Positions 3,215-52,000 are shown, numbered from the stretch's first letter. The stretch is 64,000 nucleotides of DNA from an uncultured Verrucomicrobiota bacterium (GCA_946613265.1 CAMOFK010000002.1:33817-97816), one strand, 5' to 3'. A program made the numbers and translations. The notes: generated by a model not told the origin, from the letters alone.

Positions 3215-6200
3215 ATGTACCTTAAGCAACTAGACATACTGGGATTCAAGAGTTTCGCGGACAAGACGCGCTTGACGTTCGAGCCGGGGCTTGTCGCGAT
3301 CGTCGGGCCGAACGGCTGCGGCAAGTCGAACGTGTCCGATGCGATTCGCTGGGTGTTGGGCGAGCAGAAGCCTACGGCGCTGCGCTGCTCCAAGCTTGTC
3401 GATGTCGTATTCAACGGCACGGACACGCGAAAGCCGCTGGGGCTTGCCGAAGTCTCCATCACGTTCGCCGATTGCGAGAAAGAGCTTGGTACCGATTTCC
3501 ACGAAGTGACCGTGACGCGGCGCGTGTACCGCGACGGTTCCGGCGAGTACCTGATCAACAAGAAGCCGAGCCGCCTCAAAGACGTGCAGCACCTTTTCAT
3601 GGGCACGGGCATCGGGACGTCGTCGTATTCGGTGATGGCGCAGGGGCAGATAGACGCCATCCTGTCTTCGAAGCCCGAGGACCGGCGCGCGGTTTTCGAG
3701 GAGGCCGCCGGTATCACGAAGTTCAAGGCGGACCGCAAGGACGCGCTGAGGAAAATCGAGCAGACCGAGCAGAATCTTCTTCGAGAAGCGGACGTCCTGC
3801 GCGAAATGAAGCGCCAGATCGGCTCCCTGCAGCGCCAGGTTGGCAAGGCGCAGAAGTACAAGGAGCTTCGCGACGAGCTGCGCGGTCTGGACATCTACGT
3901 CTCGAAGCAGCACATACGCGAATTCGATAGCGTGCTGGAAGAGAACGCGCGCAACCGCCGCGAGATGGAAGATGCGATAGCCGAGGCGAGCGAATCGGTA
4001 GCCGCCGCCGAAGCTGCGCAGCAGGCATTGCACGCGGAAATCCACGCCTTGGAAGAGCGTTTGCAGACGCTGGCTCAGCAGGAGGCTTCCGCATCGGGGG
4101 CGTATGCGCGTGCACAGGAAGTAATCGGCGTGAATGCGCAGCGCATCGCCGAGTACAGATCCTTCGCGGAGCGCGACGGCAGGGAGATCGCGGATACGCG
4201 CCGCCAGCTCGAAGAAGTCAAGATGCAGATGGAGTCGCTCGAGCAGAAGACGCGCCTGCTTTCCGAGTCGCTGGACGCGGCGAAGGCGGCTCTCGAAGAA
4301 GCGGAGGCGGCTTTCAAGGCGTCGCAGGCGACGATCGACGAAATGCGCCTGCGCACGCAGACTTCGCGCACGGAGAGCGTGCAGTGCGACAGGCGGGCGG
4401 CGGAAATCCGCGACGAGATCGCGCGTCTGGAAGGCGCGGAGCGCGAGGCGATCATGCGCTGCGAGCGCTTGAACGCCGACAAAGCGCAGCTCTCCGGAGC
4501 GGCGGAAGCGTCGCGCGCGGCGCTTGGCGAGATACGCGAGAAGGCGGCGGCCGCGCGCGCGTTGGAGAATGCGGGCGAGGAAGCCGTGCTCGCCGTGAAG
4601 ACAGAGCTTGACGCTTTGCGCGAGAAGATCGAGCACGCCCGCGATTCGCTCGGCGAAATGCAGCGTTCGGCGGCGGCGAAAGAAGCGCAGCTCGAAATGC
4701 TCAAGGACGAGGCGAAAGCGAAAGTCGCGCTCGAGGCGGCGCTGCAAAACGAGTGCGGCGCCGTGCGCATCGTCGCGCAGGAGCTTTCCAAGGGGGCGGT
4801 GCATGATGGCGACAGGCTTCTCGATCGCCTCGCGCCCCCGCAGGAAGAAGGCGCCGGCGAAGCCGTCGATCCGGTGCTGGAGGATTTGCTTGGCGACGTA
4901 GTGCTTGTGGGCGGCGAAGGAGGCGTCTGGCGCCCGAAAACGGGCATCGCGTCTTCGAGCGGAAGAATGTCGCCGATAACGGAAGCGGAAATGGCGCTCT
5001 CGAAGCTGCGCACGGAAATCGCGGAGGCGAAGGACGTCCTGGCCAACGGCGCGGGGAGAATCAAGGAACTCGCCGCGCGGCATGCGGAAGCCGAGGCGCG
5101 CCTGGCGGAAGCGCGGCGCGCCGCCGCGCAGTGCGAAGGCGAGGAAGCGATGGCGCGGCGCGATGCCGAGGCGCTCGATGCGCGCCTTGCCAAGGTCGCC
5201 GCCGAATTCGCGGCGGCGAAGAAAGCCACGGCGGACGGCGCGGAGCGCCGAAAGGTTCTCGCCGCCGAGCTGGAAGAGACGCTGGCGCGGCGCGATGCGC
5301 TGATGGACGCGATGGCGGAGATGCAAGAGACTCTGCGCACTCTGGAGACGGAGAGCGTGACGGAGTCGCAGCGGCTCACGGAGCGGAGAATCGCCGCCAG
5401 CCAGATGGAGCAGGAGCTTTCGTTCGTCGGGCGCCAAGGCGAAGGCGCGCGCGACCGCCGCGACGAGCTGGAGAGGCAGCTCGAAGGACGCGAGAGCGGC
5501 ATACGCGGCTATGAGGACTCGATACGCCGCCTTACCGAGGAAAGCGGCGATCTGCTGGACAGCCTCGATGAATTGAAGACGCGCGCGGAATCCATGCGCG
5601 CCATGATGGACGCCGAGCGCGCAAAGCGCAGCGGCATGATGGAGCGAATCACCGCCGCGGACCGCGAAGTCGCGGCGAAGCGCAGCGGCCTCGACCAGGC
5701 GAGGGACTTCCGCGGCAAGCTCGAAGTACAGGCGGCGGAGGCGACGATGCGCCGCCAGAACATCTACGACCACTTGAGCGACGAGTACGGGCTTTTCGCG
5801 GACGCCGTGCTGCACGAGCCGGATCCGGCGTGGAAGGGGGGCGTCGCGCCGCCCGTGCAGGAGCTGGAGGCGACCGTCGCGCGCCTGCAGGCGGACATCG
5901 CGGCGCTCGGCCCAGTGAACATGGTCGCGATCGACGAATGCCGCGAGCTGGAAGAGCGCTATTCCCGCGAGAAGGCGCAAGAGGCGGATTTGATCGCCGC
6001 CAAGGCGCAGATACTCGAGCTGATAAACACGCTCAACACGACATCGTCGGAAATGTTCCGCAAGACGTTCTCGCAGGCGAACGAGAATTTCCAGGCGATG
6101 TTCACAAAGCTTTTCGGCGGCGGCGAGGCGAGGCTGGTGCTGCTGGAAAACGCTGAGGATCCTCTCGAATGCGGCATCGACATCATCGCGCGCCCGCCCG

Positions 6201-18604: not shown

Positions 18605-19102
18605 ATGACAATAGAAGAGCATTACGCGGCCATCGCGCCGCGCCTCACAAACTGGCTCGTCTCCACCGGCAGCCGGTATGAAGACGCCTGCGACCTCGTG
18701 CAGCAGGTTTTTCTGAAGCTCTGGAAGATGCGCGACGATCTTCGCGACAGCGACGCGGCCGTTTCCGGGCTGGCGTTCACTATGGCGAAGAATCTGCGGA
18801 AGAACGCCATCCGCGACGACAGCAGAATCACCTTCAAAGAGGAGATTCTCGAAGAAGACGCGGGCAGCGCCACCACAGGCATGATGCCTTCCGACAACGC
18901 ATATCTGCGAAAGCGCCTCAATGCCGCGTTCGCGAAGCTGCCGCCGAATCTTCGCGAGGCGTACACCCTTTTCCAGGTCGGCGAGCTTTCCATACGCGAG
19001 ATCGCGCACGAGACGGGCGTAAGCGAAGGCCTTGTCAAAGTCCGCATTCACCGCGCAAAAGAAAAATTGCGCGAAATTCTCGCCGACCTTGTAACCTTTT
19101 AG
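18605..19102 (+). CDS. ECF-type RNA polymerase sigma-70 family factor
   Basis: Region 2 (DLVQQVFLKLWKMRDDL) and a region 4 HTH (LSIREIAHETGVSEGLVKVRIHRAKEKLR), 165 aa. Confidence 0.8.
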   Translation: MTIEEHYAAIAPRLTNWLVSTGSRYEDACDLVQQVFLKLWKMRDDLRDSDAAVSGLAFTMAKNLRKNAIRDDSRITFKEEILEEDAGSATTGMMPSDNAYLRKRLNAAFAKLPPNLREAYTLFQVGELSIREIAHETGVSEGLVKVRIHRAKEKLREILADLVTF

Positions 19103-21931: not shown

Positions 21932-22098
21932 GGACCAAGTCGCCTTCATTGGCGACTAGAGTCGCCTTCATGGGCGACTAGAGTCGCTTTCATTGGCGAC
22001 TAGAGTCGCTTTCATTGGCGACTGGAGTCGCTTTCATTGGCGACAGGAGTCGCTTTCACTGGCGACATGAGTCGCTTTTATTGGCGACTGGAGTCGCC
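21932..22098. repeat. Tandem array of about 7.5 copies of a 22-bp unit GGCGACTAGAGTCGCYTTCATT. Each unit carries a 7-bp inverted repeat (GGCGACT-ag-AGTCGCC).
   Basis: Units read off directly at 21951, 21973, 21995, 22017, 22039, 22061 and 22083, with a degenerate copy at 21932. Intergenic, upstream of hup and downstream of uvrD. Confidence 0.9.
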
Positions 22099-33075: not shown

Positions 33076-33215
33076 TGTCGCCTCGTCTCGCGACTAGGGT
33101 CGCCTCGTCTCGCGACTGGAGTCGCCTTTGCAAGCGACTAGGGTCGCCTCGTCTCGCGACTAGGGTCGCCTTTGCTAGCGACTAGGGTCGCCTTTGCTGG
33201 CGACTAGAGTCGCTT
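33076..33215. repeat. Second array (about 6.5 copies) of the 22-bp GCGACTAGGGTCGCC-core tandem repeat, same family and orientation as the 21.9-kb array.
   Basis: Units at 33090, 33112, 33134, 33156, 33178 and 33200. Spacers are TCGTCTC or TTTGCTR. Intergenic, after the GH95 gene. Confidence 0.85.
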
Positions 33216-37317: not shown

Positions 37318-40803
<3,486 letters not shown>

Positions 40804-40805
40804 GG

Positions 40806-40870
40806 GTTGAAAGGTTGAAAAGTGCGTAGCGACGACGCCTCGTCGTCGGAATAAAAGTTGAAAGGTTGAG
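40806..40870 (+). repeat. Junction motif GTTGAAAGGTTGAAAAG, then an 8-bp-stem hairpin (CGACGACG-cct-CGTCGTCG), then a second GTTGAAAGGTTGAG copy
   Basis: Read directly from the sequence. The same word recurs at 41829, 44425 and 46039. Confidence 0.8.
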
Positions 40871-40903
40871 GATGAAAAGCGAGTGCCAGAGAAGGGAGGT
40901 CGC

Positions 40904-41836
40904 ATGAAGGACGGCGAATTGCAATCTGCTTCGTCCGGCGGCGTTTCTTTTAAGGAAAGCGCTACGACCGACGACTTCATCAAGTCTCGCATCTTCACGA
41001 TTCGCGGCGTCCAGGTGATGCTTGATCGTGACTTGGCGTCACTCTACGGTGTTGAAACGAAGCGATTGAACGAGCAAGTCCGAAGAAACGCTGAGCGATT
41101 TCCCGTAAATTTCATGTTCTCGCTTTCACCATCGGAGATGGGGGAACTGGTCGCAAATTGCGACCGGTTCAAAACCATGAAACATTCTTCAGTTCCGATG
41201 ACTGCTTTTACGGAACACGGGATTCTGATGCTTGCGAGCGTGCTCAAAAGTGAAGTCGCCGTATCGGCAAGCATACGGATAACCAACGCTTTCGTCGCCA
41301 TGCGCAAGGCGCTTGCGTCCGTTGCGCCGCTCTTTGCCCGCATGGATACGATAGAGCGCCGCCAAATCGCAGATCAGTCTCGCAACGAAGAGCGGTTCGA
41401 CACCATCTTCAAGGCGATGGACGGGGGCGACTTTCCTCCGCAGAAGGTGTTCTTCGACGGCAAGCACTACGACGCCTTCTCTTTCGCCCGCAAGCTAGTG
41501 CGCAAGGCGGTGAAAAGCATTGTTCTTGTCGACAACTACTGCGACGATGTGACGCTCGACATCCTTTTGCAGAAGCGCGGTGGCGTGGCCGTCACGGTTG
41601 CGACGTTGCAGAAGAGCGTCACGAAGTTCCTGACGCCAGCCGCCATATCGAAGTTCAACAAGCAGAACCAGACGATGACCGTAAAGCCCGTCTCCGCTTT
41701 CCACGACCGTTTCCTCATCCTCGACGGCGTGGAACTCTACCACCTTGGCGCATCATTTAAGGACCTCGGCCGAAAATATTGCGCAGTCACGAAAATGGAC
41801 GCGATGTTCATTCCGTCCATTTTGCAGAGGATTTGA
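40904..41836 (+). CDS. ORF6N-domain protein (phage / mobile-element-associated, antirepressor or RhuM-like)
   Basis: IFTIRGVQVMLDRDLASLYGVETKRLNEQVRRNAERFPVNFMF matches the ORF6N domain. Local GC is lower than the genome background. Confidence 0.7.
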   Translation: MKDGELQSASSGGVSFKESATTDDFIKSRIFTIRGVQVMLDRDLASLYGVETKRLNEQVRRNAERFPVNFMFSLSPSEMGELVANCDRFKTMKHSSVPMTAFTEHGILMLASVLKSEVAVSASIRITNAFVAMRKALASVAPLFARMDTIERRQIADQSRNEERFDTIFKAMDGGDFPPQKVFFDGKHYDAFSFARKLVRKAVKSIVLVDNYCDDVTLDILLQKRGGVAVTVATLQKSVTKFLTPAAISKFNKQNQTMTVKPVSAFHDRFLILDGVELYHLGASFKDLGRKYCAVTKMDAMFIPSILQRI

Positions 41837-41852
41837 AAGGATTGAAAGGAAA
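41829..41852 (+). repeat. Variant junction motif GATTTGAAAGGATTGAAAGGAAAC directly before the GLUG-protein start
   Basis: Direct read. Confidence 0.6.
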
Positions 41853-41858
41853 CAACCA

Positions 41859-44429
41859 ATGAAAAAGACACTTTTGACAATGCTGGCTATGGCCGCCGCG
41901 GTCTGTTCATTCCAGGCCGGCGCGGAAACGGTGCAAATATCGGATGCCGAAGATTGGGCGGCGTTCGCGGCCCGCGTGAACAACGGCGAGACGGCGCTCG
42001 ACGCGGAACTGACTGCCGACGTGACGCTCGCGCAAGACTCCCCGCGCGTCGGCGACTCCGTGGAACATCCATACGCCGGTTCGTTCAACGGCAACAGCCA
42101 CAAGCTGACTTTGAACTGGAATTCTTCCGGCGTCGAACGTCTCGCTCCGTTCGGCTACGTTTCCGGCGCGAAGATTTCCGATTTGCACACGGCCGGCGCT
42201 ATTGTCACCGATAGCCAGTTCGCATCCGGGCTGATTGGCGAAGCGCGCCCAAAAGGCGCTGTCATATCGCGCTGCCGTTCGTCCGTTGCAATCACGAGCA
42301 CCTTAAGCGGCGATGCGACCATGGGAGGCTTCGTCGGCAGGACTTACTGGGAATCGCAGCTTGTCGAGTTGAATAACTGCCTTTTCGACGGCTCGCTGAT
42401 TGCTGCGGACGGAACCAATATCGGCGGTTTTGTCGGCTACAATTTCGATGCGACACAACTCACAATCATAGATTCTTTATTCGCTCCGCAAAGTTATAAC
42501 TTGCAGACAGAAGACGGCTCTGCTACATTTTCTAGACATGTGTCGTGGACTTCCCTCTCATTAAGGAACAGTTTCTACACGACTGCGGTGGGCGAAACCC
42601 AAGGCACGGACGCCTCCGCGATGACGCCGGAGCAGCTTGCCGAGGCTCTCGGCGGCGCTTGGAGCGTTTCGGATGGCAAGCCAATTCCTTCGGCTGCCGC
42701 CTTTGAGGAGTTCAAGCATCGTACCGGCGTCATCGAATTGTTGAAGAACGGCGAAGGCGGCAACACGGACGGATGGTTGGTCGATAGAGGCTCATGGGGG
42801 AAGCAGACGGGCAATGGCAGCTGGTTCTGGCCGAATACGGAAGCCCTGTCTAGATTGTCGCAGTGGGTGACGCTTGAGGATTTCGGAATCACAACGAACG
42901 ATGTCATGGCGGGCGTTTCCGTGACTGCTTCCGTCACGGCACGATGCCGGATTGGCAGTCTGGCCGCCTATGTCAAGCTGATTCAGTTTGGCAATAACGG
43001 AAGCATCGCCGAGACTACGTTGATGGACAGGACAGGCAAAGAATTCGCCGAGACCACCTATACGACAAATATCACGCTCGACGCCAATACGACAGTACTG
43101 CAATATATGCTGGTGGGGCAGCAGCCGGAGAGCGGCGAATACTTGTCCGGTCCAGCCTTCAAGCAGTGCAGCCTGACCACGTCGCGCTTCGCAATATCCT
43201 TTGTGTCGGAAGGCGCCGAGGTCGATAAAGTCTACTTCTTCAACATCTCTGGCGTGACGGCTCCTCGGCCGGGCTACCTCTGGAACCACGTTTTCATCGG
43301 CTACTATACGCAGGAAACGGGGGGAGAGCAGATTTTCGACGGCAACTGCCGCTACACGAATCCCGCGGCTTGGACGCCGAATGGGAGTGCCACACTCTAC
43401 GCGCATTGGCGCCCCCGGGTCGTCAGTTTCAAGTTTGTTTCGTCCGGTTCGACCGTCGGAGACTTGAACTACAACTTTGAGGGCGAGGCGCCGACAGCGC
43501 CGATCCCAGTCCGCAAGGGCGACTACAAATTCCTCGGCTACTACACGGAGAGCGGCGTGCAGGTTTACGACGAGAACGGCGCTTTCGTCGCAAGTTCCGC
43601 TTCCGCTTTGACGCCGGATACGACGCTCTATGCGAGTTGGAAGCTCCCCGAGGGCAGCGCCGCTAAGCTCGTCTATCGCGGGCAGTTGAGCCGTCTGACC
43701 GGCGAACCCGCGACAAACGATACGGCGTACGAAAAGACGATGCACTTCCGCGTTTACGACTCGGCGGAAGCGGCGACGCCGCTTTGGAAGATCGACGACC
43801 AGCATGTGACCGTGAACGCCGACGGCAGCTTCGTGCACATGTTCGGCGACGAGACGCTCGCCGCGCTCATCGCGACAGGAAACGTCTCGCATGTCGGCGT
43901 GGCGATCGGCACGTACGCAAACACGGCTGCGGAATTGAAGCCGCGCCGCGAGCTGCGCTCTGTCGCGGCAGTGAACCGTGCGATTACCGCGGAAGGAGCG
44001 GCGCTCGATATCCGCGTCGGCAATCTCGCCACCGAGAATGCGTTGCTGGCGGCCGACGCGACCGTTTCGCATCTCGAAGTCGCAGGCACGGTGACGGCGC
44101 CGGGCGCCGGCAAGATCGAGGTCTCCCCGCTCACGGTCGGCGCGGGCGAGCGCACGCAGCTCTTGCGCGGCAAGGGCGTCAAGGCGTTCGCGCGCACGGC
44201 GCCTTCCGTGTTGGTTCCCAATTCCGGCGCGGTCTTGAGAGGCGCGGTCCTCGCGACGGCGCCGGCGGACGGCGTGGCGCTCGTTTCGAGCGCGGCGTTC
44301 GGCGAGCGCGCTTTGCGCTGCCCGGCGGTCGTCCAATATTGCCGCGCAGGCGAAAGCGTGCGCGCGCCGACATCCGACGATGGCGGCCTCAAGGTGACGT
44401 TCTTCCCGTTCGTCCGGAACGACCGTTGA
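41859..44429 (+). CDS. Secreted GLUG-motif protein with C-terminal List_Bact repeats
   Basis: Signal peptide MKKTLLTMLAMAAAVCSFQAGA. Repeated GLUG-type motifs (ASGLIGEARP, MGGFVGRTY, IGGFVGYNF). List_Bact units (…GYLWNHVFIGYY…LYAHW; …GDYKFLGYYTE…LYASW). Tail VTFFPFVRNDR. Confidence 0.65.
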   Translation: MKKTLLTMLAMAAAVCSFQAGAETVQISDAEDWAAFAARVNNGETALDAELTADVTLAQDSPRVGDSVEHPYAGSFNGNSHKLTLNWNSSGVERLAPFGYVSGAKISDLHTAGAIVTDSQFASGLIGEARPKGAVISRCRSSVAITSTLSGDATMGGFVGRTYWESQLVELNNCLFDGSLIAADGTNIGGFVGYNFDATQLTIIDSLFAPQSYNLQTEDGSATFSRHVSWTSLSLRNSFYTTAVGETQGTDASAMTPEQLAEALGGAWSVSDGKPIPSAAAFEEFKHRTGVIELLKNGEGGNTDGWLVDRGSWGKQTGNGSWFWPNTEALSRLSQWVTLEDFGITTNDVMAGVSVTASVTARCRIGSLAAYVKLIQFGNNGSIAETTLMDRTGKEFAETTYTTNITLDANTTVLQYMLVGQQPESGEYLSGPAFKQCSLTTSRFAISFVSEGAEVDKVYFFNISGVTAPRPGYLWNHVFIGYYTQETGGEQIFDGNCRYTNPAAWTPNGSATLYAHWRPRVVSFKFVSSGSTVGDLNYNFEGEAPTAPIPVRKGDYKFLGYYTESGVQVYDENGAFVASSASALTPDTTLYASWKLPEGSAAKLVYRGQLSRLTGEPATNDTAYEKTMHFRVYDSAEAATPLWKIDDQHVTVNADGSFVHMFGDETLAALIATGNVSHVGVAIGTYANTAAELKPRRELRSVAAVNRAITAEGAALDIRVGNLATENALLAADATVSHLEVAGTVTAPGAGKIEVSPLTVGAGERTQLLRGKGVKAFARTAPSVLVPNSGAVLRGAVLATAPADGVALVSSAAFGERALRCPAVVQYCRAGESVRAPTSDDGGLKVTFFPFVRNDR

Positions 44430-44460
44430 AAGGTTGAAAAGTTTAAAGGTTGAAGGGTTG
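44425..44460 (+). repeat. Junction motif GTTGAAAGGTTGAAAAGTTTAAAGGTTGAAGGGTTG
   Basis: Direct read. Lies immediately after the GLUG-protein stop. Confidence 0.8.
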
Positions 44461-44665
44461 ATGGCGAAGAACGGCAACAGCAGCCTCGACCGGGCCAAGA
44501 AGCAGAAGGGCGCGTACATGACAATCCTGAGAGTACGAATTATTTCTGCAATACAGACCAGTCGTTCACGCTAGACAGAGATGGAACAGTCCGCGTCTGC
44601 AAGTTTGGCTACGCATGTGAATGCTGCACAAACCGGACATGCCATGTAGAACGGGAGGTGCAACG

Positions 44666-45412
44666 ATGAAAACGCGAAAGCCATTTTATGTCATTGCTAT
44701 CCTGTCGATGGCGATTATGATGTCTCGACATGCCGAAAGCGCAGTCATATACGACCCTATGCCCGTGGGCAAGCTGCCGCCAAATGGCTTTTTCTCGCTT
44801 GATTCTCCGCCGGAATCGTTTCCGGAGGAACTTCTTTGCAAGGTGCGGGAAAATGCCGCCGCGCAATGTGCGCCCTTTGCCACTTGCACGACCGCGACCA
44901 ACGATGTCAGACACATCCGTGCCGCTCTCGATTCTTTAGATTATGTTTGCGCCACCAATCAGTGGAATTATCGGCTGGTGGAAGAGGCGATGAATTTCGA
45001 AAGGATCAAGGAGTCGCCGGACTATCGCGCATTTGCGTCTGTCGTATCAAATGATTGGACGCTCGCGCTTGAACATTTGGACGAACTTGCGACCAACGAT
45101 TTGGAACGCTTGCTGATACTTGGCGTCGGCAAGACATACGACGAGGATTTTTATATTGAACACATGGGTGCGCTCGCCAGCATGGTGACGAACAATCTTG
45201 TTTTGGCCGAAGAATTTTCGTGGGCGCGCGCAAGCACGCGGTTTGATCTCCAGTCCTGTCTTATCCGCCGATACCAAGAACCCAAGGTGATCGCGCTGAT
45301 CGACAAATACAAGGCGGTGCAGCCAGACCGGACGAACTATTGGGACAGCGTGCTTTCCGGTGTCGCATATACCAATTATCTGGAAGAAGTGAAGGCTGGA
45401 CTTTGGCAGTGA
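44666..45412 (+). CDS. Hypothetical secreted protein (low-GC gene)
   Basis: GGGAGG RBS. Signal peptide MKTRKPFYVIAILSMAIMMSRHAESA. GC about 50%. Confidence 0.5.
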   Translation: MKTRKPFYVIAILSMAIMMSRHAESAVIYDPMPVGKLPPNGFFSLDSPPESFPEELLCKVRENAAAQCAPFATCTTATNDVRHIRAALDSLDYVCATNQWNYRLVEEAMNFERIKESPDYRAFASVVSNDWTLALEHLDELATNDLERLLILGVGKTYDEDFYIEHMGALASMVTNNLVLAEEFSWARASTRFDLQSCLIRRYQEPKVIALIDKYKAVQPDRTNYWDSVLSGVAYTNYLEEVKAGLWQ

Positions 45413-45443
45413 TGTCGCCAAACGAAAATGAAAGAATTGCTGA

Positions 45444-46028
45444 ATGAAGATTGACCCACTATCGCTGACTGCGCGAGAACTGTGCGAAGGCTACGCCGAC
45501 CATGCGGAGGACGGCGTGGTTGCGTATGGCGGCAGGCTCGACATCCGCCCGAAGTATCAACGCGAGTTCATCTACTCCGAAAAGCAGCAGCAGGCAGTCG
45601 TAAACACGGCGATGCACGGCTGGTCTCTGAATACGATGTACTGGGCCGTGCGCGGCGACGGCACGTTCGAGGTCATCGACGGACAGCAGCGCACCTTGTC
45701 CCTCTGCCGCTTCTGCGAGGGCGACTTCTCCTTCCCGTGGCGCGGCTCACGGCAGACGGCGACGTGCCGCGCACGAGCGGAATCTACGAGTATCTTCTTT
45801 CCGGCGGCGAGCGGGAGAGCGCGCTTTCCATCCGCAAGTTCACAGATTCGCAGAAACGCTCGGCCTGCGAGCGGCAGGGCTTGGGCCTGTCCCGTCTGCG
45901 GCAAGCGTTTCGAATTCGAGGAAATGCACGGCGACCGCAAGACGCCGTGGCCGAAAGGCGGGCACACCACGCCCGACAATCTACAAACGCTTTGCCGCAT
46001 ATGCAACCTAAGGAAAGGCAATGTGTAG
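45444..46028 (+). pseudogene. DUF262 (ParB-like, DGQQR) plus HNH mini-nuclease, apparently disrupted by two compensating frameshifts
   Basis: Frame 1 gives the N-terminal …RPKYQREFIYS…EVIDGQQRTLSL (DUF262) and the C-terminal CPVCGKRFEFEEMHGDRKTPWPKGGHTTPDNLQTLCRICNLRKGN (HNH). The roughly 150-nt middle reads as Arg/Ala/Ser junk in that frame but as plausible protein in frame +1 (ORF 45482..46060). Confidence 0.45.
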
Positions 46029-46038
46029 TCGCTCATGA

Positions 46039-46066
46039 GGTTGAAAAGCTGAAAGGTTGAAAATTC
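46039..46066 (+). repeat. Junction motif GGTTGAAAAGCTGAAAGGTTGAAAATTC, abutting the giant gene's ATG
   Basis: Direct read. Confidence 0.8.
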
Positions 46067-49000
46067 ATGAATTTCGATAACTATATTAAATCACGCATGG
46101 AGGGCAAAGCAATGAGCCTTGCAGAAAAACTCGCTGGAAAGATGAAAAGTCGCTTTTCAACTTTTCACCTTTTCAACTTTACAACCGCAGCGTTTGCGTT
46201 CGCGCTCTGCGCGACGGCAAACGCCGCTCCGCCAGAGGATACAGAACTCACGCTTGGCGAGGTTGAGCTGCCTGTATATATCTATTCGGCGGGCGGCAAC
46301 TCCGGCTTCGCGCAGCCTTCCGTGGCGTATCCGATTTCCACCGTCAAGGCGCCCACGCTGCCAGAAGAACAGGTGACGAGCGTCTCGGACAAGGACAAGA
46401 CGAAGACTTGGCAGCTCTTCGCCTGGACGGTCGGGCGCACGCTCTCGGAGCAGCCGCCGGACGCCAGGCTCGGCGACTTCTGCACCGACACCATCTACAA
46501 CCCGGAGGATATCGACTGGCTCGCGACCATCGCGACAAACAAGGCGCTCGTCGCCAATGGCCAGATCGTTTTCAACACCGGCGCGACGAATGCGTACGAG
46601 CGGCTGATCTTCACCGCGAGCGGCGCGACGGAGATTACATGGGTGAACACCGCCGGCGAGACAGAGTCGCGCACGTACAACATCGGCAGCTCGTCGTCGG
46701 CGCGTCCCTACAGGCTCTTCGCCACGCGCGCCGATGAGGGGAATTCCGCCGCGTTCATCGACCTCTCCGGAAAGTACGTCAGATTTTTTGGCGACAAGAA
46801 ACTGCTCGAGAGCCGCTATGCCGAGACTACGCCGGGCGCCTCTAACGTGGTTTACGGTATAGACTACGATCCTTCAAAAAGCAAGCTTCTCACGGTGCGC
46901 TACACGGTCGATGAAGCAACCGGTGCCATCGATTGCCCGCAGGGGCAGTTCGTGCTGGCCTACTACGACACCGAAACGAAGGATCGCATGGTCGCGCATA
47001 TCGTCGTCGAGATATGCCCTCCGAATATCACCACGCTCAATGTCGAAGTCGGCGATTGCCTCAAGCCGGCGGGCGGCGGCTTCGGCTCCGGCCAGCTCTA
47101 CGCCGTCGCTTCCGCAGGCCTCTCGCGCGAGGATAACGACTTGTATTCGCCGTATCTCGAGAAGTATTCCGCCCCCGAGGGAGAGGAGCTTACCGATCCA
47201 GACCACGGCAAGATTTTCGCCGTCGCGCCCACGGACGTGACGACAAGTTCCTCCGGCATCGCTATGCCGTGGAAGGCGGACATCTTCTGGCAGACGGAAG
47301 ACCCGATGAAGACGAAGTGGAACTTCGAGCACGACTGGTACCTCATCAGCTGGCCGGAGAAGCCCGTTCGCGTCGTCGTCGCGCCGAACGGGGCGCCGGC
47401 GGGATGCTCCGTCGTCGTGCCGACAAATTATGTCGCTTCCACATCCGGCTTCAAGCTTCCGAGCACCGTTTCCGCCAATTACGATTCTTTCAAGGGCGAG
47501 ATGACGTTCAGCGGCGCGAGCGGAGACAAGATCCTTGTCAAGCTCGTCAATCAGAACAACAAGGGCTGCCCGTCGTTCATCCCCGTCGAGCTGACCGGCT
47601 ACGCGAATCCGCTTGTGGCGTCGCCTTGGCTCTACGAATGGCCAGTCGGCGTCGAGATCACGCCGCGCATCGGCATCGAGGCCGGCCCGCTGGCGCGCGC
47701 GGTTTCCGAGCGCATCGACGACAATCTCGCAGGCTACATCTACGAGCCAGAATCGCGCGGACGCAACTGGAACCCGCGGCTCTACCATCGTCCAGGCGGC
47801 TCGAGCGTGGTTCCGCTCGACGTCCCCTCGCTCGACGAAATAGAATCCGAAGCGGCCCGCGAGCCCGCCGACGCCTATGAAGATCTCGATTCCTCCATCT
47901 ACGGCGTGAACGAAAGCGGCTCGAAGATCCAGGTGTGGTGGAGAGCGAATTTCCAGACGCCGCAGATGAGCGTGCCTGTCGTTTATCCGGCGCTCGTGCA
48001 GAACTACAACGTGACATGGAACGCGACGATGGCGAACGGCCTCCTGCCGCAGATCGCCTTCTCCTCGCAGTGCGGTTCGGACGACCCCACGCTGACTGCA
48101 TGCAGCGGGCGCTCCCTCCTTCTCGTCGAGACGAATTCGATGGCGAGCGTCGAACTTGGCAACACGGCGCTTTCCGTGACGGAATCCGCCAACCTCGGTT
48201 TCTCCTGCTACGTCTCTCCCGACGAGACGGAGAACGGCGAGTTGGCCGCGATGCCGGGACGCCTCGCGAAATTCCGCTTCGGCGGGCGCAAGACCGGCGA
48301 CGTCGCCGTGATCGACGCGATACTCGTCAAGGGCGAGACGAATGACTACAGCGTCGTCGTTTCTACGACGGCTGGCGGCGCCACGACGCAGGAGACCTAT
48401 CCCGTAACGCCCGGCGAATGGGCGGACATCCCTGCGCCAATTCCCGAACCGGCGCGCGGCTGCACGGTTTCCGCGACATACGGCGCGGAGAACCAGACGG
48501 CGGGCGATGCCGCGACATTCGTGGCCCTCGACAACCTCGAAATCTGGTACGGCCCGGCGACCAACGCAGTCGATTTCCTCTACGCATTCGCGTTTGGCGA
48601 CAACGATCTGGCGACGCTCGGCACGAACGGCACCGTCCGCACATCCACGGATCCGCTAGGCAACGTGCTGACTTGCCGCAACTGCTCGATGGCCGGTGCG
48701 GGCGCGCCGCGCGCCTTCGAGAAGAAGTTCGCGGCGAATAATGGCGTGGCACCGGAAATCTACTACGAGAACAACCCGAACAACATCGGCTACAACCCGA
48801 ACGAAGAACATGCGTTCATAGATTTCAACAACTCCAACTACACCGTCTGGGCGTTGAGAAACGATCTGAACACCGAGAATTCTTCGCAGCCGCTCGTCCT
48901 GGTGATGTATGCCGAGAACGGTAAGGGCAAGATGCAGGCCTTCACGCTCGCGAAGACCTCCATCCACCACCCGGAGTTTTCCAGCTCCGCCATCGTCGGC

Positions 49001-52000
49001 AACCAGCTGTTGCCGCCGGCGCCGATCTCCCGCCTCTCCGGCAGCAAGACTTCCATCGACACCGCGGCGTCGGCGTTCGCGTTCGACGACAACGCCGTCG
49101 CCTACAAAGACCGCAAGAACGCCCTCTGGGCGCGTCGCGACGGCATCGCCTACGCCAAGTACGGCTACCCGATGCAGACGGGCTTCTACTTCCCGTCGCT
49201 CGTCGAGCAGCCCGCGGTCGGCACGCCGATCGCCTGGCTTGCATGCGAAGGTTTGCAGGCGCCGACGATGGACGACATCACCAACATCGCCGCAGCGGTG
49301 AACTGGAAGTGGACCGCTCAATGGCCTTTGCAGGTTCCGGAAATGAAGATCGGCCAGGTGCTGACGAAGGCGGCGCTCGGGCTTCCCGAAGTCTGGAACG
49401 CCTCGTCCATGGCAGTCTGCTACCCGAATCCTTCCGCGGCCGACGTGGAAGCCGGTAGTTCCCTCGGCCTGCCCGTAGTCGAACTCATCGACCCTACCGT
49501 CGTGCAGAAGTCCGAAAAGACGCTTGACGTGAACTCGAACTTCCCCGACGAGTGGGGCTTCGTGGTCGGGCCTTCCGGCACGACGTTCCTCCGCAAGGGC
49601 AAATACTACTTCACCGGCCTGCCGCCGTCCATTTCGGACCGTTTCTACGTCACGGTAGAGAACGGGCAGGCCTCGATGAACCTCATCGGGCAGTACGTCG
49701 AGAAGGAAGCCGGCGGCTCGTACCTCGAGCTTAACGTGCTCACCGACGCGGAGCGCGCGGCCATCAAGGCGCTGTGCACGCTCGATCCGACGCAGAAGGC
49801 CGCGGAAGTCGCGGCCTGGAACGCGGCGGCGGATTCGCTCGCCGTTGCGGAAGTGCAGCCGTCTCCTCGCACGAACGTCCCGGACGGCGTCCCGTCCGAA
49901 GGGCGCGTCGAGATGATGCTCGCCTTCCCGAGCAAGGATCTGTACGATGCCTGGGTGAGCAAGATGAGGTGGGACGACTCTCTCATCGCCAGCCGCTTTA
50001 CCGTCGAGGAGATCACTCTCAGCAGCATCGGCACGCCTCTCAAGGTCGTCGTCGGCAAGGCCGTCGAAGCAGACGGCGTCGCATTCGCCAAGTGGCATCT
50101 GAGCAAGATACGTACCGAGAAGGTGAAGGAAGGACGCCTCGAAGCCGCCAAGTCCCGCTACGAAGAACTCGGCCTCAATACATATCTCGGCAAGGAGTGG
50201 GACGAGGAGACGGGAGAAAAGACGACTTGGCCTGTCACATTCGTCGAAGGCTACTTCACGTGGGATGCGAAGGAATATCCCGCCGCGAACACGTATCTGC
50301 CGCGCGACCACTACGCGCTCGTCGCCAACGGCCTCGGTGTCGGATATGTCACGCTCATCGAGAACGACAACCCCGATCCGACGCAGGTGTCCGACGGCCT
50401 GCCGGTGCGCATGCACGTCATCAAGGTCGTGCCGGAATTGTACACGGACGGCATCGCGGTCTTGACCGACTCTCTGAACAAGCTTTCCGAAAAGCTCACG
50501 CTCCTCTATCGCACGCCGCTCGGTTCCTCCGCGAAAGACTTCGAATTCCAGTGGGCGTACACGACGCCGATGGCAAACGGCGACGTCCCGGAGAAGGGCA
50601 CGTCCTATTGGAAGGACAAGGCGCAGGAGACGGGACTCGTCTCGGTGCAGCTCGGCGAGAATGGCGCGAACCTCCAGGACTATGTCAATACCTATTATAC
50701 TCTGCGCTACCGTCCCCGCAAGGGTTCGCCCGCGTGGGAGGTCTTGAAGCTGGCTAACGGCTGGACGGACGACGAGCAGTTCTGGAGCCCGTGGGTGGAC
50801 GAGCAGCTCGCCGAAGGCTGGCTGCAGCGCGTTCTCAACTCTCTCACGCCGTTTGCGCAGCGCGTGGAGGATTTCTACTCCAACCAGAGCGACATGTGGC
50901 TCACGATGCTCGAGCAGATCGGCCGTCCCTACCAGGGCGACGTGGCGCTCAACAACGACAATCTCAAGCAGATCGGCCTGCTTGAACTCTACCAGACGAT
51001 ATTCAACCGCGCCGAGGCGTTGCTCGTCGCCGCCGGCGGCAACAACATCGACATGTCCAAGCAGCTCATGCTTGCGCAGACGCGCATGGGCGAATTCTAT
51101 TCTCTCCTTGGCGCCGAGGCGTATTCCGACGCGAAGAACCCGCTGATTTCTCCGGCCGCCGACGGCCAGAAGTTCGCGTCCGGAACGTTCTCGTTCGCGA
51201 ATCAGGTTCCGTCGCTTCTCGACGAGGAACTCGCGCTCCTGCGCGGCCGCACGAAGGCGACGCAGTTCCCGCGCATGACCGAGGCGCCGCTCTACAACCG
51301 CCTCGCCTGGAACCTGACAAAGGGAATAACCGAGGGCGAGCCCGCGTACGTCGCCAACTACGGCATCCGTGCGCGCGACGGCATCCTCGACGTCAACTGC
51401 GCGGCTGCGCAGTATCCGCAGGGCCACGGCGACGCATGGGGCCACTACCTCTCGGCCATCACCGGCTACTACCGCCTCCTGCGCAACCCGTGGTTCGATT
51501 GGGCGACGGCGATGGGCGAGATGCTCATGGACCAGAAACTCATGAACGTCGATTACCAGGATGAGCAGAAGCTCGCCGATGCGGCCGTCAAGCTCGTCCA
51601 GACAGGTACCGACGCCATGGATCTCACGCTTCGCAAGGCTTACAAGGAGAACGCCGGCAACACCGACGCGGCCTATTTCGACTCCGACACCGAGCAGGCG
51701 TTTGGCTACGGCGAATGGGCGACGCGCACGGGCATGGCGGCCGCTTACAACTGGATGACGGTGAATGCGCTCCTGCCGACGAACGACGCGCCCTACCAGG
51801 CGTTCACCGACAAGGGCGTCAAGAAGATCGACCGCACCACGGCGACGCAGCTTCCCGCCCTTGCATCCTCCGTCCGCGTGATCGAGAGGAAGCTGAACGG
51901 CTACGAGGCGGGTGCGAACCCGCTGGGCCTCGACGAGAACGCGATCCCGTTCGATATCGATCCCGACCGCCTGGCGCAGAAGGAGTCGCACTTCGAGCAG

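Follow-up and report, generated by a model that had tools for sequence, protein, structure and literature searches.

The window analyzed here is a 64,000-nucleotide stretch of DNA from an uncultured Verrucomicrobiota bacterium (GCA_946613265.1, CAMOFK010000002.1:33817-97816; positions are counted from its first nucleotide), and it carries an operon for large secreted proteins whose intercistronic junctions between 40.8 and 46.2 kb hold tandem arrays of the octamer GTTGAAAR. The original prediction for this region had described a motif recurring upstream of start codons and delimiting a cassette-like block of accessory genes. We find that the arrays belong to a repeat family that occurs many times per genome in rumen Kiritimatiellae and is also present in other phyla, that they pre-exist at the operon's junctions, and that foreign DNA lies inside them twice. 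The features of the block are listed below, where G denotes the GTTGAAAR orientation, C its complement YTTTCAAC, aa amino acids and ORF an open reading frame.

37318-40803, gene for an 1161-aa protein (p1161), ending in TAG
40806-40821, + strand, array A: two units, GTTGAAAG GTTGAAAA
40830-40848, GC hairpin between arrays A and B: perfect 8-bp stem, CGACGACG-CCT-CGTCGTCG
40857-40872, + strand, array B: two units, GTTGAAAG GTTGAGGA, the second degenerate
40904-41836, + strand, ORF6N-domain gene, its stop in array C
41832-41849, + strand, remnant array C: two variants at 9-nt spacing, TTTGAAAGG ATTGAAAGG
41859-44429, + strand, gene for an 856-aa secreted protein ('GLUG'), a conserved operon member
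44425-44460, + strand, array D: four to five units, GTTGAAAG GTTGAAAA GTTTAAAG GTTGAAGG GTTG
44461-46039, + strand, putatively inserted 1.58-kb fragment comprising the next three features
44461-44574, + strand, 37-aa ORF (MAKNGNSSLDRAKKQKGAY...), starting inside array D
44666-45412, + strand, lower-GC, immunity-like gene; homologues are 192 aa long, and the true start may be downstream of 44666
45444-46028, + strand, DUF262(GmrSD_N)-HNH remnant, a 194-aa ORF
46040-46063, + strand, array E: three units, GTTGAAAA GCTGAAAG GTTGAAAA; 5' arm of a foldback
46064-46152, + strand, leader between the foldback arms: ATG at 46067, GGAGGG at 46099-46104, ATG at 46112 and ATG at 46142
46067-54220, + strand, gene for a giant secreted protein of 2717 aa, its 5' end bearing the foldback module
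46153-46184, - strand, array F: four units, CTTTTCAA CTTTTCAC CTTTTCAA CTTTACAA, followed by C at 46185; 3' arm of the foldback

The recurrence of the motif is real. The 16-mer TTGAAAGGTTGAAAAG has exact copies at 40807 and 44426, and with up to three mismatches it finds 11 matches in the 64-kb window compared to 0.27 expected from shuffled sequence, a count reached by none of 100 shuffles. Sequence inspection and repeat finders resolve the repeat into the 8-nt tandem unit GTTGAAAR (Tandem Repeats Finder reports period 8 and 2-4.6 copies in the window), and units in two to five copies stand at 40806, 40857, 41832, 44425 and 46040; the inverted array F had been overlooked. The word TTGAAA[AG]G is nearly limited to 40.8-46.2 kb, with further copies in the window only at 58756 (+) and 20317 (-), and the octamer motif was not found upstream of about 20 other window genes. 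Because these other gene starts lack it, we rejected a generic Shine-Dalgarno (SD) context, the deflating explanation that the original prediction had allowed for in case the motif showed no extended conservation elsewhere; such conservation proved to be massive. A CRISPR array was also rejected, since the units are contiguous 8-mers and not 24-48-nt repeats with unique spacers. Further candidate roles for the arrays would be as a mimic of the 8-nt tag of CRISPR RNAs, AUUGAAAG, which GUUGAAAG may resemble, as BoxA-like NusB/E sites, as Rho rut sites, as RNase E sites, or as integration host factor (IHF) sites, for which the match to WATCAANNNNTTR is poor.

Within the block, the arrays are closely interwoven with the ends and beginnings of genes. 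Array A begins 2 nt past the p1161 stop, and the ATG at 40872, in array B, is the first codon of an 11-codon ORF whose terminal ATGA coincides with the start of ORF6N. Two genes terminate inside arrays (ORF6N with TGA at 41834-41836 in array C, GLUG with TGA at 44427-44429 in array D), and the last unit of array C is fused with the SD (GAAAGGA) of the GLUG-like gene. The arms E and F lie 90 nt apart and show 92% complementarity across 24 nt, and array D is 83% complementary to 46156-46185. The perfect hairpin that had been noticed beside the motif is present between arrays A and B and is followed by GAATAAAAG. It belongs to a small family of hairpins resembling repetitive extragenic palindromic (REP) sequences, GTGG/GTAG-CGACGRYG-N3-4-CGYCGTCG, whose members lie between or beside arrays in five of the loci we retrieved (L137, L152, L162, L163 and L082, by our own numbering) and away from arrays in L044. 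Consensus scans found no intrinsic terminator (GC stem plus T run) at the arrays or at the 40830 hairpin, and no sigma-70-like promoter or -10 partner coinciding with the arrays, while Rfam gave no match at E<=1 in window positions 40000-47000 and found tRNAs alone in 19 array-bearing loci.

The gene content of the block was described correctly for the ORF6N gene (PF10543, E=1.8e-29), for the DUF262-HNH nuclease (GmrSD_N plus HNH in the 194-aa ORF) and for the low-GC stretch (GC 0.49-0.54 versus 0.61 overall). The GLUG/List_Bact label was not confirmed, as the protein has no Pfam match at E<=0.01 and one homologue gives only a weak, faint match to Flg_new.

We then compared the block with its relatives. 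A protein-guided metagenome scan yielded 30 related loci (L132-L161) at 50-87% identity, and L095, from the genome scan described below, is also syntenic with the window operon, whose conserved order is p34521, p36445, p1161, a GLUG-like gene (variable) and the giant protein. Across 25 loci, the spacer past the p1161 stop differs in what lies between that stop and the native ribosome-binding site GGAAAGGAWACRACWWATG: it may hold nothing, a GC hairpin, two to seven G units, G units together with a CGACGRCG hairpin, other 7-9-nt foldback repeats, or a full G(3-6)-leader-C(4) module. The last G unit at this downstream junction of p1161 merges into the native SD GGAAAGGA. Relatives carry zero to seven units at the junction of p1161 with GLUG, and both this junction and that between GLUG and the giant gene already bear arrays in relatives.

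The ORF6N gene is absent from L132-L161 and occupies the same slot, with the same array A-hairpin-array B upstream, in the closer relatives L162-L165, which points to a lineage-specific insertion into the array between p1161 and GLUG. The first unit of array C is partly the native 3' end of ORF6N (AGGATTTGAAA), suggesting that one junction was made at TTGAAA microhomology between AGGATTTGAAA and an array unit. Homologues of this gene are numerous (7223 database proteins at E<=1e-10, many of them 70-97% identical, the named ones from Kiritimatiellae), and those located near MatE or within a RhuM/Type ISP island have no flanking arrays. The family is found in several unrelated contexts, including beside RhuM and a Type ISP restriction enzyme, and these varied contexts indicate that it behaves like a mobile or defence-island gene.

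The 1.58-kb fragment shows a comparable relationship to the arrays. None of about 30 related loci contains a counterpart of its lower-GC gene or of its DUF262-HNH remnant, and in L162 and L163, which lack the fragment, the GLUG stop is followed directly by two G units, a short leader, four C units and the giant gene. The fragment thus appears to have been inserted inside the G arm of the giant-gene module, splitting array D, the probable left part of that arm, from array E. Homologues of the lower-GC gene (L173, L178 and L179) are 192-aa tandem paralogues that lie downstream of large proteins without arrays; some stand in repeated 361/192/270-aa units, a layout typical of polymorphic-toxin immunity or orphan cassettes. 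The start of the 37-codon ORF may resemble the N-terminus of some DNA methyltransferases, and this ORF may be a gene remnant.

The presence of two foreign segments inside arrays accounts for the cassette-like look of the block. In the synteny comparison that had been proposed for detecting cassette gain and loss, ORF6N and 44461-46039 are absent from about 30 related loci. We rejected the idea that arrays are carried with cargo as portable homology, since homologues of both ORF6N and the low-GC gene elsewhere lack them. L137 and L140 share the array-hairpin-array arrangement that precedes ORF6N in the window, but there the ATG past it opens a four-helix-bundle gene, located between p36445 and p1161. 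Such genes lie between octamer arrays at L137 1213-1593, L140 2376-2756, L155 6146-6526 and L094 2907-3269 (a Bacteroidales metagenome-assembled genome, MAG), and by eye their products are candidate members of a 23S rRNA intervening-sequence protein/Avd-like family; L083 may hold a fragment of a four-helix-bundle 3' end. As the usual cargo or trans-acting factor of the arrays these genes were rejected, because a tblastn search of about 170 loci found them only in L094, L137/L140 and L155.

At the start of the giant gene, the leader and its two arms form a recurrent module. All three leader ATGs and the GGAGGG are in the frame of the giant ORF, and the leader is conserved in nine modules from seven loci, with indels that are multiples of three. 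Depending on the genome, the gene that the module precedes is p1161, GLUG, a second GLUG-like gene (GLUG2) or that of the giant protein; module and gene invariably point the same way, and the module recurs only within this operon family. The C arm has four units in all modules, while the G arm has three to six. The module ORF reads ATGAATTTC, then AAGGAGG-N8-ATG, FSTFQLFNF and a hydrophobic signal-peptide core; because the ORF runs through the C array, the 3' arm is coding, and in the window array F contributes the residues FSTFHLFNFTT to the giant protein's N-terminal extension and signal peptide. The arms are predicted to form a stem of 35 pairs (window fold -43.7 kcal/mol, z = -2.2). In the large secreted proteins of the operon, a normal signal-peptide core is preceded by an N-terminal extension of 40-50 residues that the C array (FSTFQLFNFSTFQLFN) encodes in part (window 46067-46230; L083 7700-8000 on the - strand; modules of L095, L135, L143, L145, L156 and L161), an arrangement reminiscent of the extended signal peptides seen in very large exoproteins.

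The family extends far beyond this operon. A scan of species-representative genomes with the 17-mer GTTGAAAGGTTGAAAAG returned at least 120 stretches. Among the matches listed, about half are from rumen or gut Kiritimatiellae, some recorded as Verrucomicrobia or Lentisphaerae, and the other carriers are Bacteroidota (including cultured Flavisolibacter, Niabella, Algoriphagus and Odoribacter), Gastranaerophilales/Melainabacteria, Chloroflexota, Elusimicrobia, Nitrospirae and others; the seed lies within an array of at least three units in 91 of these 120 stretches, with up to 17 units. Single MAGs supply up to nine or more contigs with the exact 17-mer. In IMG/VR the 17-mer had eight matches, seven of them plain two-unit copies, which is at chance level, and a phage origin was rejected. 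Because 91 of the 120 stretches carry three or more units and the viral matches are mostly bare two-unit copies, the arrays are not chance 17-mers. The GTTGA core is 88-100% conserved in every group, positions 6-8 vary, and units GTTGAAAG and GTTGAAAA often alternate in Kiritimatiellae arrays. Searches of papers by sequence string did not find GTTGAAAR arrays, and a search of the literature on tandem Shine-Dalgarno phrases found nothing relevant.

Across these genomes, the arrays are mostly intergenic and occupy co-directional, divergent and convergent spacers alike, and some lie within the 5' coding region of secreted-protein genes. Solo arrays are sense and antisense in nearly equal numbers (12:11 among GC-rich loci, 15:16 among AT-rich ones), so a sense-strand bias was rejected. 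Close pairs, in contrast, are strongly polarized: under strict unit criteria, 23 pairs within 400 nt are convergent (G array-spacer-C array) versus none everted, and under loose criteria 105 are convergent versus 18 everted, most of the 18 being weak matches. Unit variants are mirrored between the arms of several pairs (L091, GTTGATAC...GTATCAAC; L059). This polarity indicates that the basic element is a foldback palindrome, (GTTGAAAR)n-loop-(YTTTCAAC)n, of which solo arrays are plausibly half-elements. The spacers between arms at other loci are unrelated. Around about 30 foldback pairs we found no consistent target-site duplication, and a comparison of array pairs revealed no conserved sequence outside the units.

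The genes beside the arrays are equally diverse. The neighbours include the housekeeping genes Pth, Cmk, HrcA, FolE, NadE and FliP/Q as well as accessory genes, and the arrays show no specific placement ahead of secreted-protein genes. A link to one gene family was rejected, as 77 small array-adjacent ORFs share no Pfam family, and no transposase or integrase was among the 25 commonest Pfam families of these 77 ORFs, a search that was confined to array neighbours and did not cover whole genomes. An array TTG serves as the start codon for Pth (L070) and for a lipoprotein (L072), and the antisense (C) strand contains no stop codon, no start codon and no G. Orthologous arrays differ by whole units (five in L016 and four in L130, for example), as is expected from slippage. 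Isolates rich in arrays include Flavisolibacter ginsengisoli DSM 18119 and species of Chitinophaga and Niabella; in Flavisolibacter, an array cluster sits among receiver-domain and HTH genes.

Several other observations concern neighbouring proteins and repeats. Two paralogous window proteins without Pfam matches (MALDIN..., 55155-56462 and 58326-60224) have homologues in other Kiritimatiellae (L016, L034, L130, L052 and L105), which bear upstream either C-orientation arrays with AGGAGA or a conserved sequence of about 50 nt with G arrays; CesT-type chaperone and FlhB/FliP/FliQ genes lie near these homologues and hint at secretion-system substrates. Other tandem repeats of period 7, 8 and 9 are abundant in the same genomes, many as inverted pairs, and other periods are rare. 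Examples are CACAAAGGA, GACAGGATT, AATGTTGCC, CGCAGAGA and GAAATGTG, with sites at L044 2701-2751, L133 1676-1769, L153 1745-1787, L027 7452-7615 and L084 2098-2293, and the habit of forming 7-9-nt foldback repeats seems general in the Kiritimatiellae lineage. In MAG UBA3761, a further repeat element occurs three times, as CATGCAATAGRTTTTTATCGCAGAGACGCAGAGACGCAGAG and as its inverse, directly beside or between GTTGAAAR arrays (L027 7396-7690, L104 3004-3082 and L030 3485-3556); arrays may be preferred targets for other repeats, by analogy with ISGme8/9 in Geobacter (PMC2700814). At L030 5256-5480, a tRNA gene (5256-5329) is followed after 20 nt by a perfect G5-loop-C5 foldback in a terminator-like position with no T run, and its loop contains a further period-8 repeat, TCTAGAAC. 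The window itself also holds intergenic tandem hairpin units of 22 nt at 21938-22097 (7.3 copies of AGTCGCTTTCATTGGCGACTAG, 92% match) and at 33077-33213 (6.2 copies of GTCGCCTCGGCTCGCGACTAGG), each unit consisting of a 5-6-bp stem, an 8-nt loop and TAG.

We interpret the motif, with a probability of roughly 0.6, as a local cluster of an interspersed repeat resembling the cyanobacterial short tandemly repeated repetitive (STRR) sequences, which serves as a fragile insertion site and has been locally co-opted as stop codon, SD and start codon. Arrays would be fragile or recombination-prone through slippage, hairpin or cruciform formation, or microhomology, and foreign DNA would enter them by microhomology or illegitimate joining without a dedicated integrase; such fragility would explain why accessory genes look array-delimited. 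The claim that the motif is a recombination site thus survives in part, since foreign genes do lie inside pre-existing arrays, but neither a recombinase, nor an att-like architecture, nor a target-site duplication was found. In the sense orientation, each 8-nt unit shifts the reading frame, so that three units present TGA in every frame and could thereby be co-opted as stops. The GAAAGG(A) of the unit coincides with the native SD, is complementary to the common 16S rRNA 3' tail CCUUUC and could serve the following cistron as its SD; the TTG of the unit can act as a start codon, and the G-less, stop-less antisense array can be read through. In the module, pairing of the two arms could give a stem of roughly 30 bp whose loop contains the ribosome-binding site and ATG and whose 3' arm is translated. 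Through its variable length, the G arm could then tune how the mRNAs for the large secreted proteins are processed, stabilized or translated, in the manner of the Haemophilus hmw1A repeats.

Several points weigh against this interpretation. The functional steps are inferred throughout, and fragility rests on two insertion events. The 50:50 orientation of solo arrays means that the stop, SD, start and leader roles are local uses and cannot explain why the family exists. Neutral slippage does not account for an octamer that is nearly identical from phylum to phylum; this likeness suggests a conserved partner or horizontal spread. The z-score of the stem is modest and its covariation weak (term -0.26 kcal/mol), the latter owing to how little the arms vary. 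Genes in the retrieved loci were predicted with a crude caller based on GC content at third codon positions. Finally, three other assemblies of the locus (L001-L003) are 100% identical to the window, which matches contigs of MAG GCA_002363575.1 and an ENA assembly, and these sole other assemblies show no within-strain variation in copy number. A more far-reaching interpretation, which we regard as rather unlikely, is that GTTGA-core arrays in Kiritimatiellae, Bacteroidota, Melainabacteria, Chloroflexota and others are kept by a conserved trans-acting system and serve as cross-phylum, integrase-independent landing pads; candidates for that system are a protein that binds nucleic acids and an activity in recombination or repair, reading tandem 8-nt units.

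Alternatively, the arrays may be the terminal inverted repeats of a non-autonomous foldback element akin to miniature inverted-repeat transposable elements (MITEs), moved in trans by a candidate transposase that binds tandem 8-bp sites. We consider this possible but unlikely, and hold the same doubt about its extension, in which such elements are variously empty (G-loop-C), leader-bearing or furnished with a small gene such as the four-helix-bundle gene. The strict pair polarity, which makes the arms terminal inverted repeats, the presence/absence polymorphism at orthologous junctions and the occurrence of the same module at different genes are all consistent with a mobile element, as are the arrangement of four G units, hairpin, two G units, four-helix-bundle gene and three C units in L137/L140 (similar in L155) and the other elements that adjoin arrays (CGCAGAGA in UBA3761 loci, and ISGme8/9 at a fixed distance from Geobacter octamers; PMC2700814); horizontal transfer would also account for the cross-phylum spread. 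However, target-site duplications, conserved terminal sequences and a transposase among array neighbours were all missing, arm lengths vary by single units, the Bacteroidales four-helix-bundle gene (L094) lies between direct rather than inverted arrays, and a leader module that is always gene-oriented and in frame fits a gene segment better than a mobile insert. A dedicated integron- or shufflon-like system, with the arrays as recombination sites for cassettes of accessory or secreted-protein genes, is decidedly improbable. It would accommodate the foreign genes inside arrays, the matching array-hairpin-array slots of the four-helix-bundle gene (p36445/p1161 in L137/L140) and of ORF6N (p1161/GLUG in the window), and the agreement by eye of GTTGAAA with the published integron core consensus GTTRRRY at six of seven positions. 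Yet a Pfam scan of ORFs found no integrase or recombinase in the window block or among array neighbours, the GTT...AAC polarity is the reverse of attC (RYYYAAC...GTTRRRY), cargo genes occur elsewhere without arrays, most arrays flank ordinary syntenic genes, and one junction shows joining at microhomology and not at a fixed crossover point.

Two further alternatives invoke protein binding or transcription. MetJ binds tandem 8-bp boxes and omega 7-bp boxes, and the arrays might be cooperative platforms for a conserved small DNA-binding protein of the MetJ/omega ribbon-helix-helix type, or for IHF/HU, acting as nucleoid or global regulatory sites. The 8-bp period, the GTTGA core kept across phyla while positions 6-8 vary, the independence of orientation relative to genes and the IHF/HU proposal made for Geobacter (PMC2700814) agree with such platforms. 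We nevertheless find them improbable, as no candidate protein was found, independent sites would not yield near-exclusive convergent pairing, arrays are found within the coding 5' ends of genes and directly against start codons, and the many unrelated 7-9-nt families that coexist would need many cognate proteins. Least credible, and rejected here, is the original proposal of a direct-repeat operator or promoter for a response regulator or extracytoplasmic function (ECF) sigma factor governing this secreted-protein block. Tandem direct repeats do stand just upstream of window start codons, TTGAAA resembles a -35 hexamer, and the window encodes an ECF-type sigma at 18605-19102, although this gene, the one that could be confirmed, sits 22 kb away. 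Against it, arrays occur in both orientations, in every intergenic type and in coding 5' ends, next to housekeeping and otherwise unrelated genes in many phyla, with presence and copy number varying at orthologous junctions; the consensus scan gave no -10 partner, and an 8-bp spacing is off the helical phase for OmpR/PhoB-type dimers.

If the arrays are indeed STRR-like repeats that act as fragile, locally co-opted sites, those who predict and annotate genes in rumen and gut MAGs should watch for them, both because they generate spurious ORFs and peptides such as FSTFQLFNF and because they supply real stops, TTG starts and SD sites and mark junctions of changing gene content. The variable hairpin around the start of genes for very large secreted proteins would then be a testable analogue, in an uncultured but abundant rumen lineage, of the Haemophilus hmw repeat rheostat. 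A microsatellite driven by slippage would not be expected to keep one 8-nt core in distantly related phyla, and, should the landing-pad interpretation be true, the arrays would represent a new kind of cassette platform at which genes and 5' segments, such as the extended signal-peptide modules, are inserted or exchanged.

Among known systems, REP/BIME, BOX, Correia and RPE elements share with the arrays a palindromic, intergenic, multi-copy character, polymorphic presence and use as insertion targets, and RPEs are likewise present in frame inside genes; here, however, the arms consist of a variable number of 8-nt units, target-site duplications and conserved termini are missing, and the distribution is cross-phylum. 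Integron attC sites are also imperfect palindromes at gene junctions with a GTT/AAC core and accessory genes between sites, but differ in that the arrays have reversed arm polarity, tandem units, no IntI found and flanking genes that are mostly not cassettes. STAB-SD, GAAAGGAGG, is an SD-like sequence in the 5' untranslated region of Bacillus thuringiensis cry3A that stabilizes mRNA, and by our own conjecture the GAAAGG of sense units could similarly recruit 30S subunits at or away from a start codon; half of the GTTGAAAR arrays are antisense, however, and they lack a GGAGG core.

Closer parallels exist for the module and for the arrays themselves. In the 5' untranslated region of Haemophilus influenzae hmw1A, (ATCTTTC)n forms a hairpin arm and the repeat number tunes expression via RNase III (PMC12721329). 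The module resembles it in having a unit length that is not a multiple of 3, a position upstream of a very large secreted protein and a long hairpin, in which a variable G arm (three to six units) faces a fixed C arm. In contrast to hmw1A, both arms here are repeats, the 3' arm is translated and the repeat is genome-wide rather than locus-specific; a role for RNase III would be by analogy, and the variation is between species. Geobacter metallireducens carries paired tandem octanucleotides (class 1, GTTGCTYN in four copies, and TWGTTGAY repeats) in dozens of copies as opposite-strand pairs at variable distance, with insertion sequence elements at a fixed distance, and the original description took these sites to be specific to the species and guessed at binding by IHF/HU (PMC2700814). 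Tandem octamers with a GTTG core, opposite-strand pairing and mobile elements alongside are common to both, whereas the consensus departs after GTTG and no link was made there to start codons, stop codons or coding 5' ends.

The cyanobacterial STRR heptamer hairpins lie between the co-transcribed genes hupS and hupL, where roles in transcript stability or translational coupling have been proposed (PMC2670836). Like them, the arrays are made of short tandem units (7 nt in STRR, 8 nt here), are dispersed between genes and form hairpins, and they occur in Melainabacteria, which are classified with the Cyanobacteria; unlike the lineage-specific STRRs, the GTTGAAAR core unit spans several phyla. 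To our knowledge, neither foldback polarity nor insertion into arrays has been described for STRRs. In this reading, the arrays are a variant of STRR-like repeats, and what is notable is their sharing between phyla together with the insertion-site, stop, SD, start and leader roles that they appear to have taken on at this locus.

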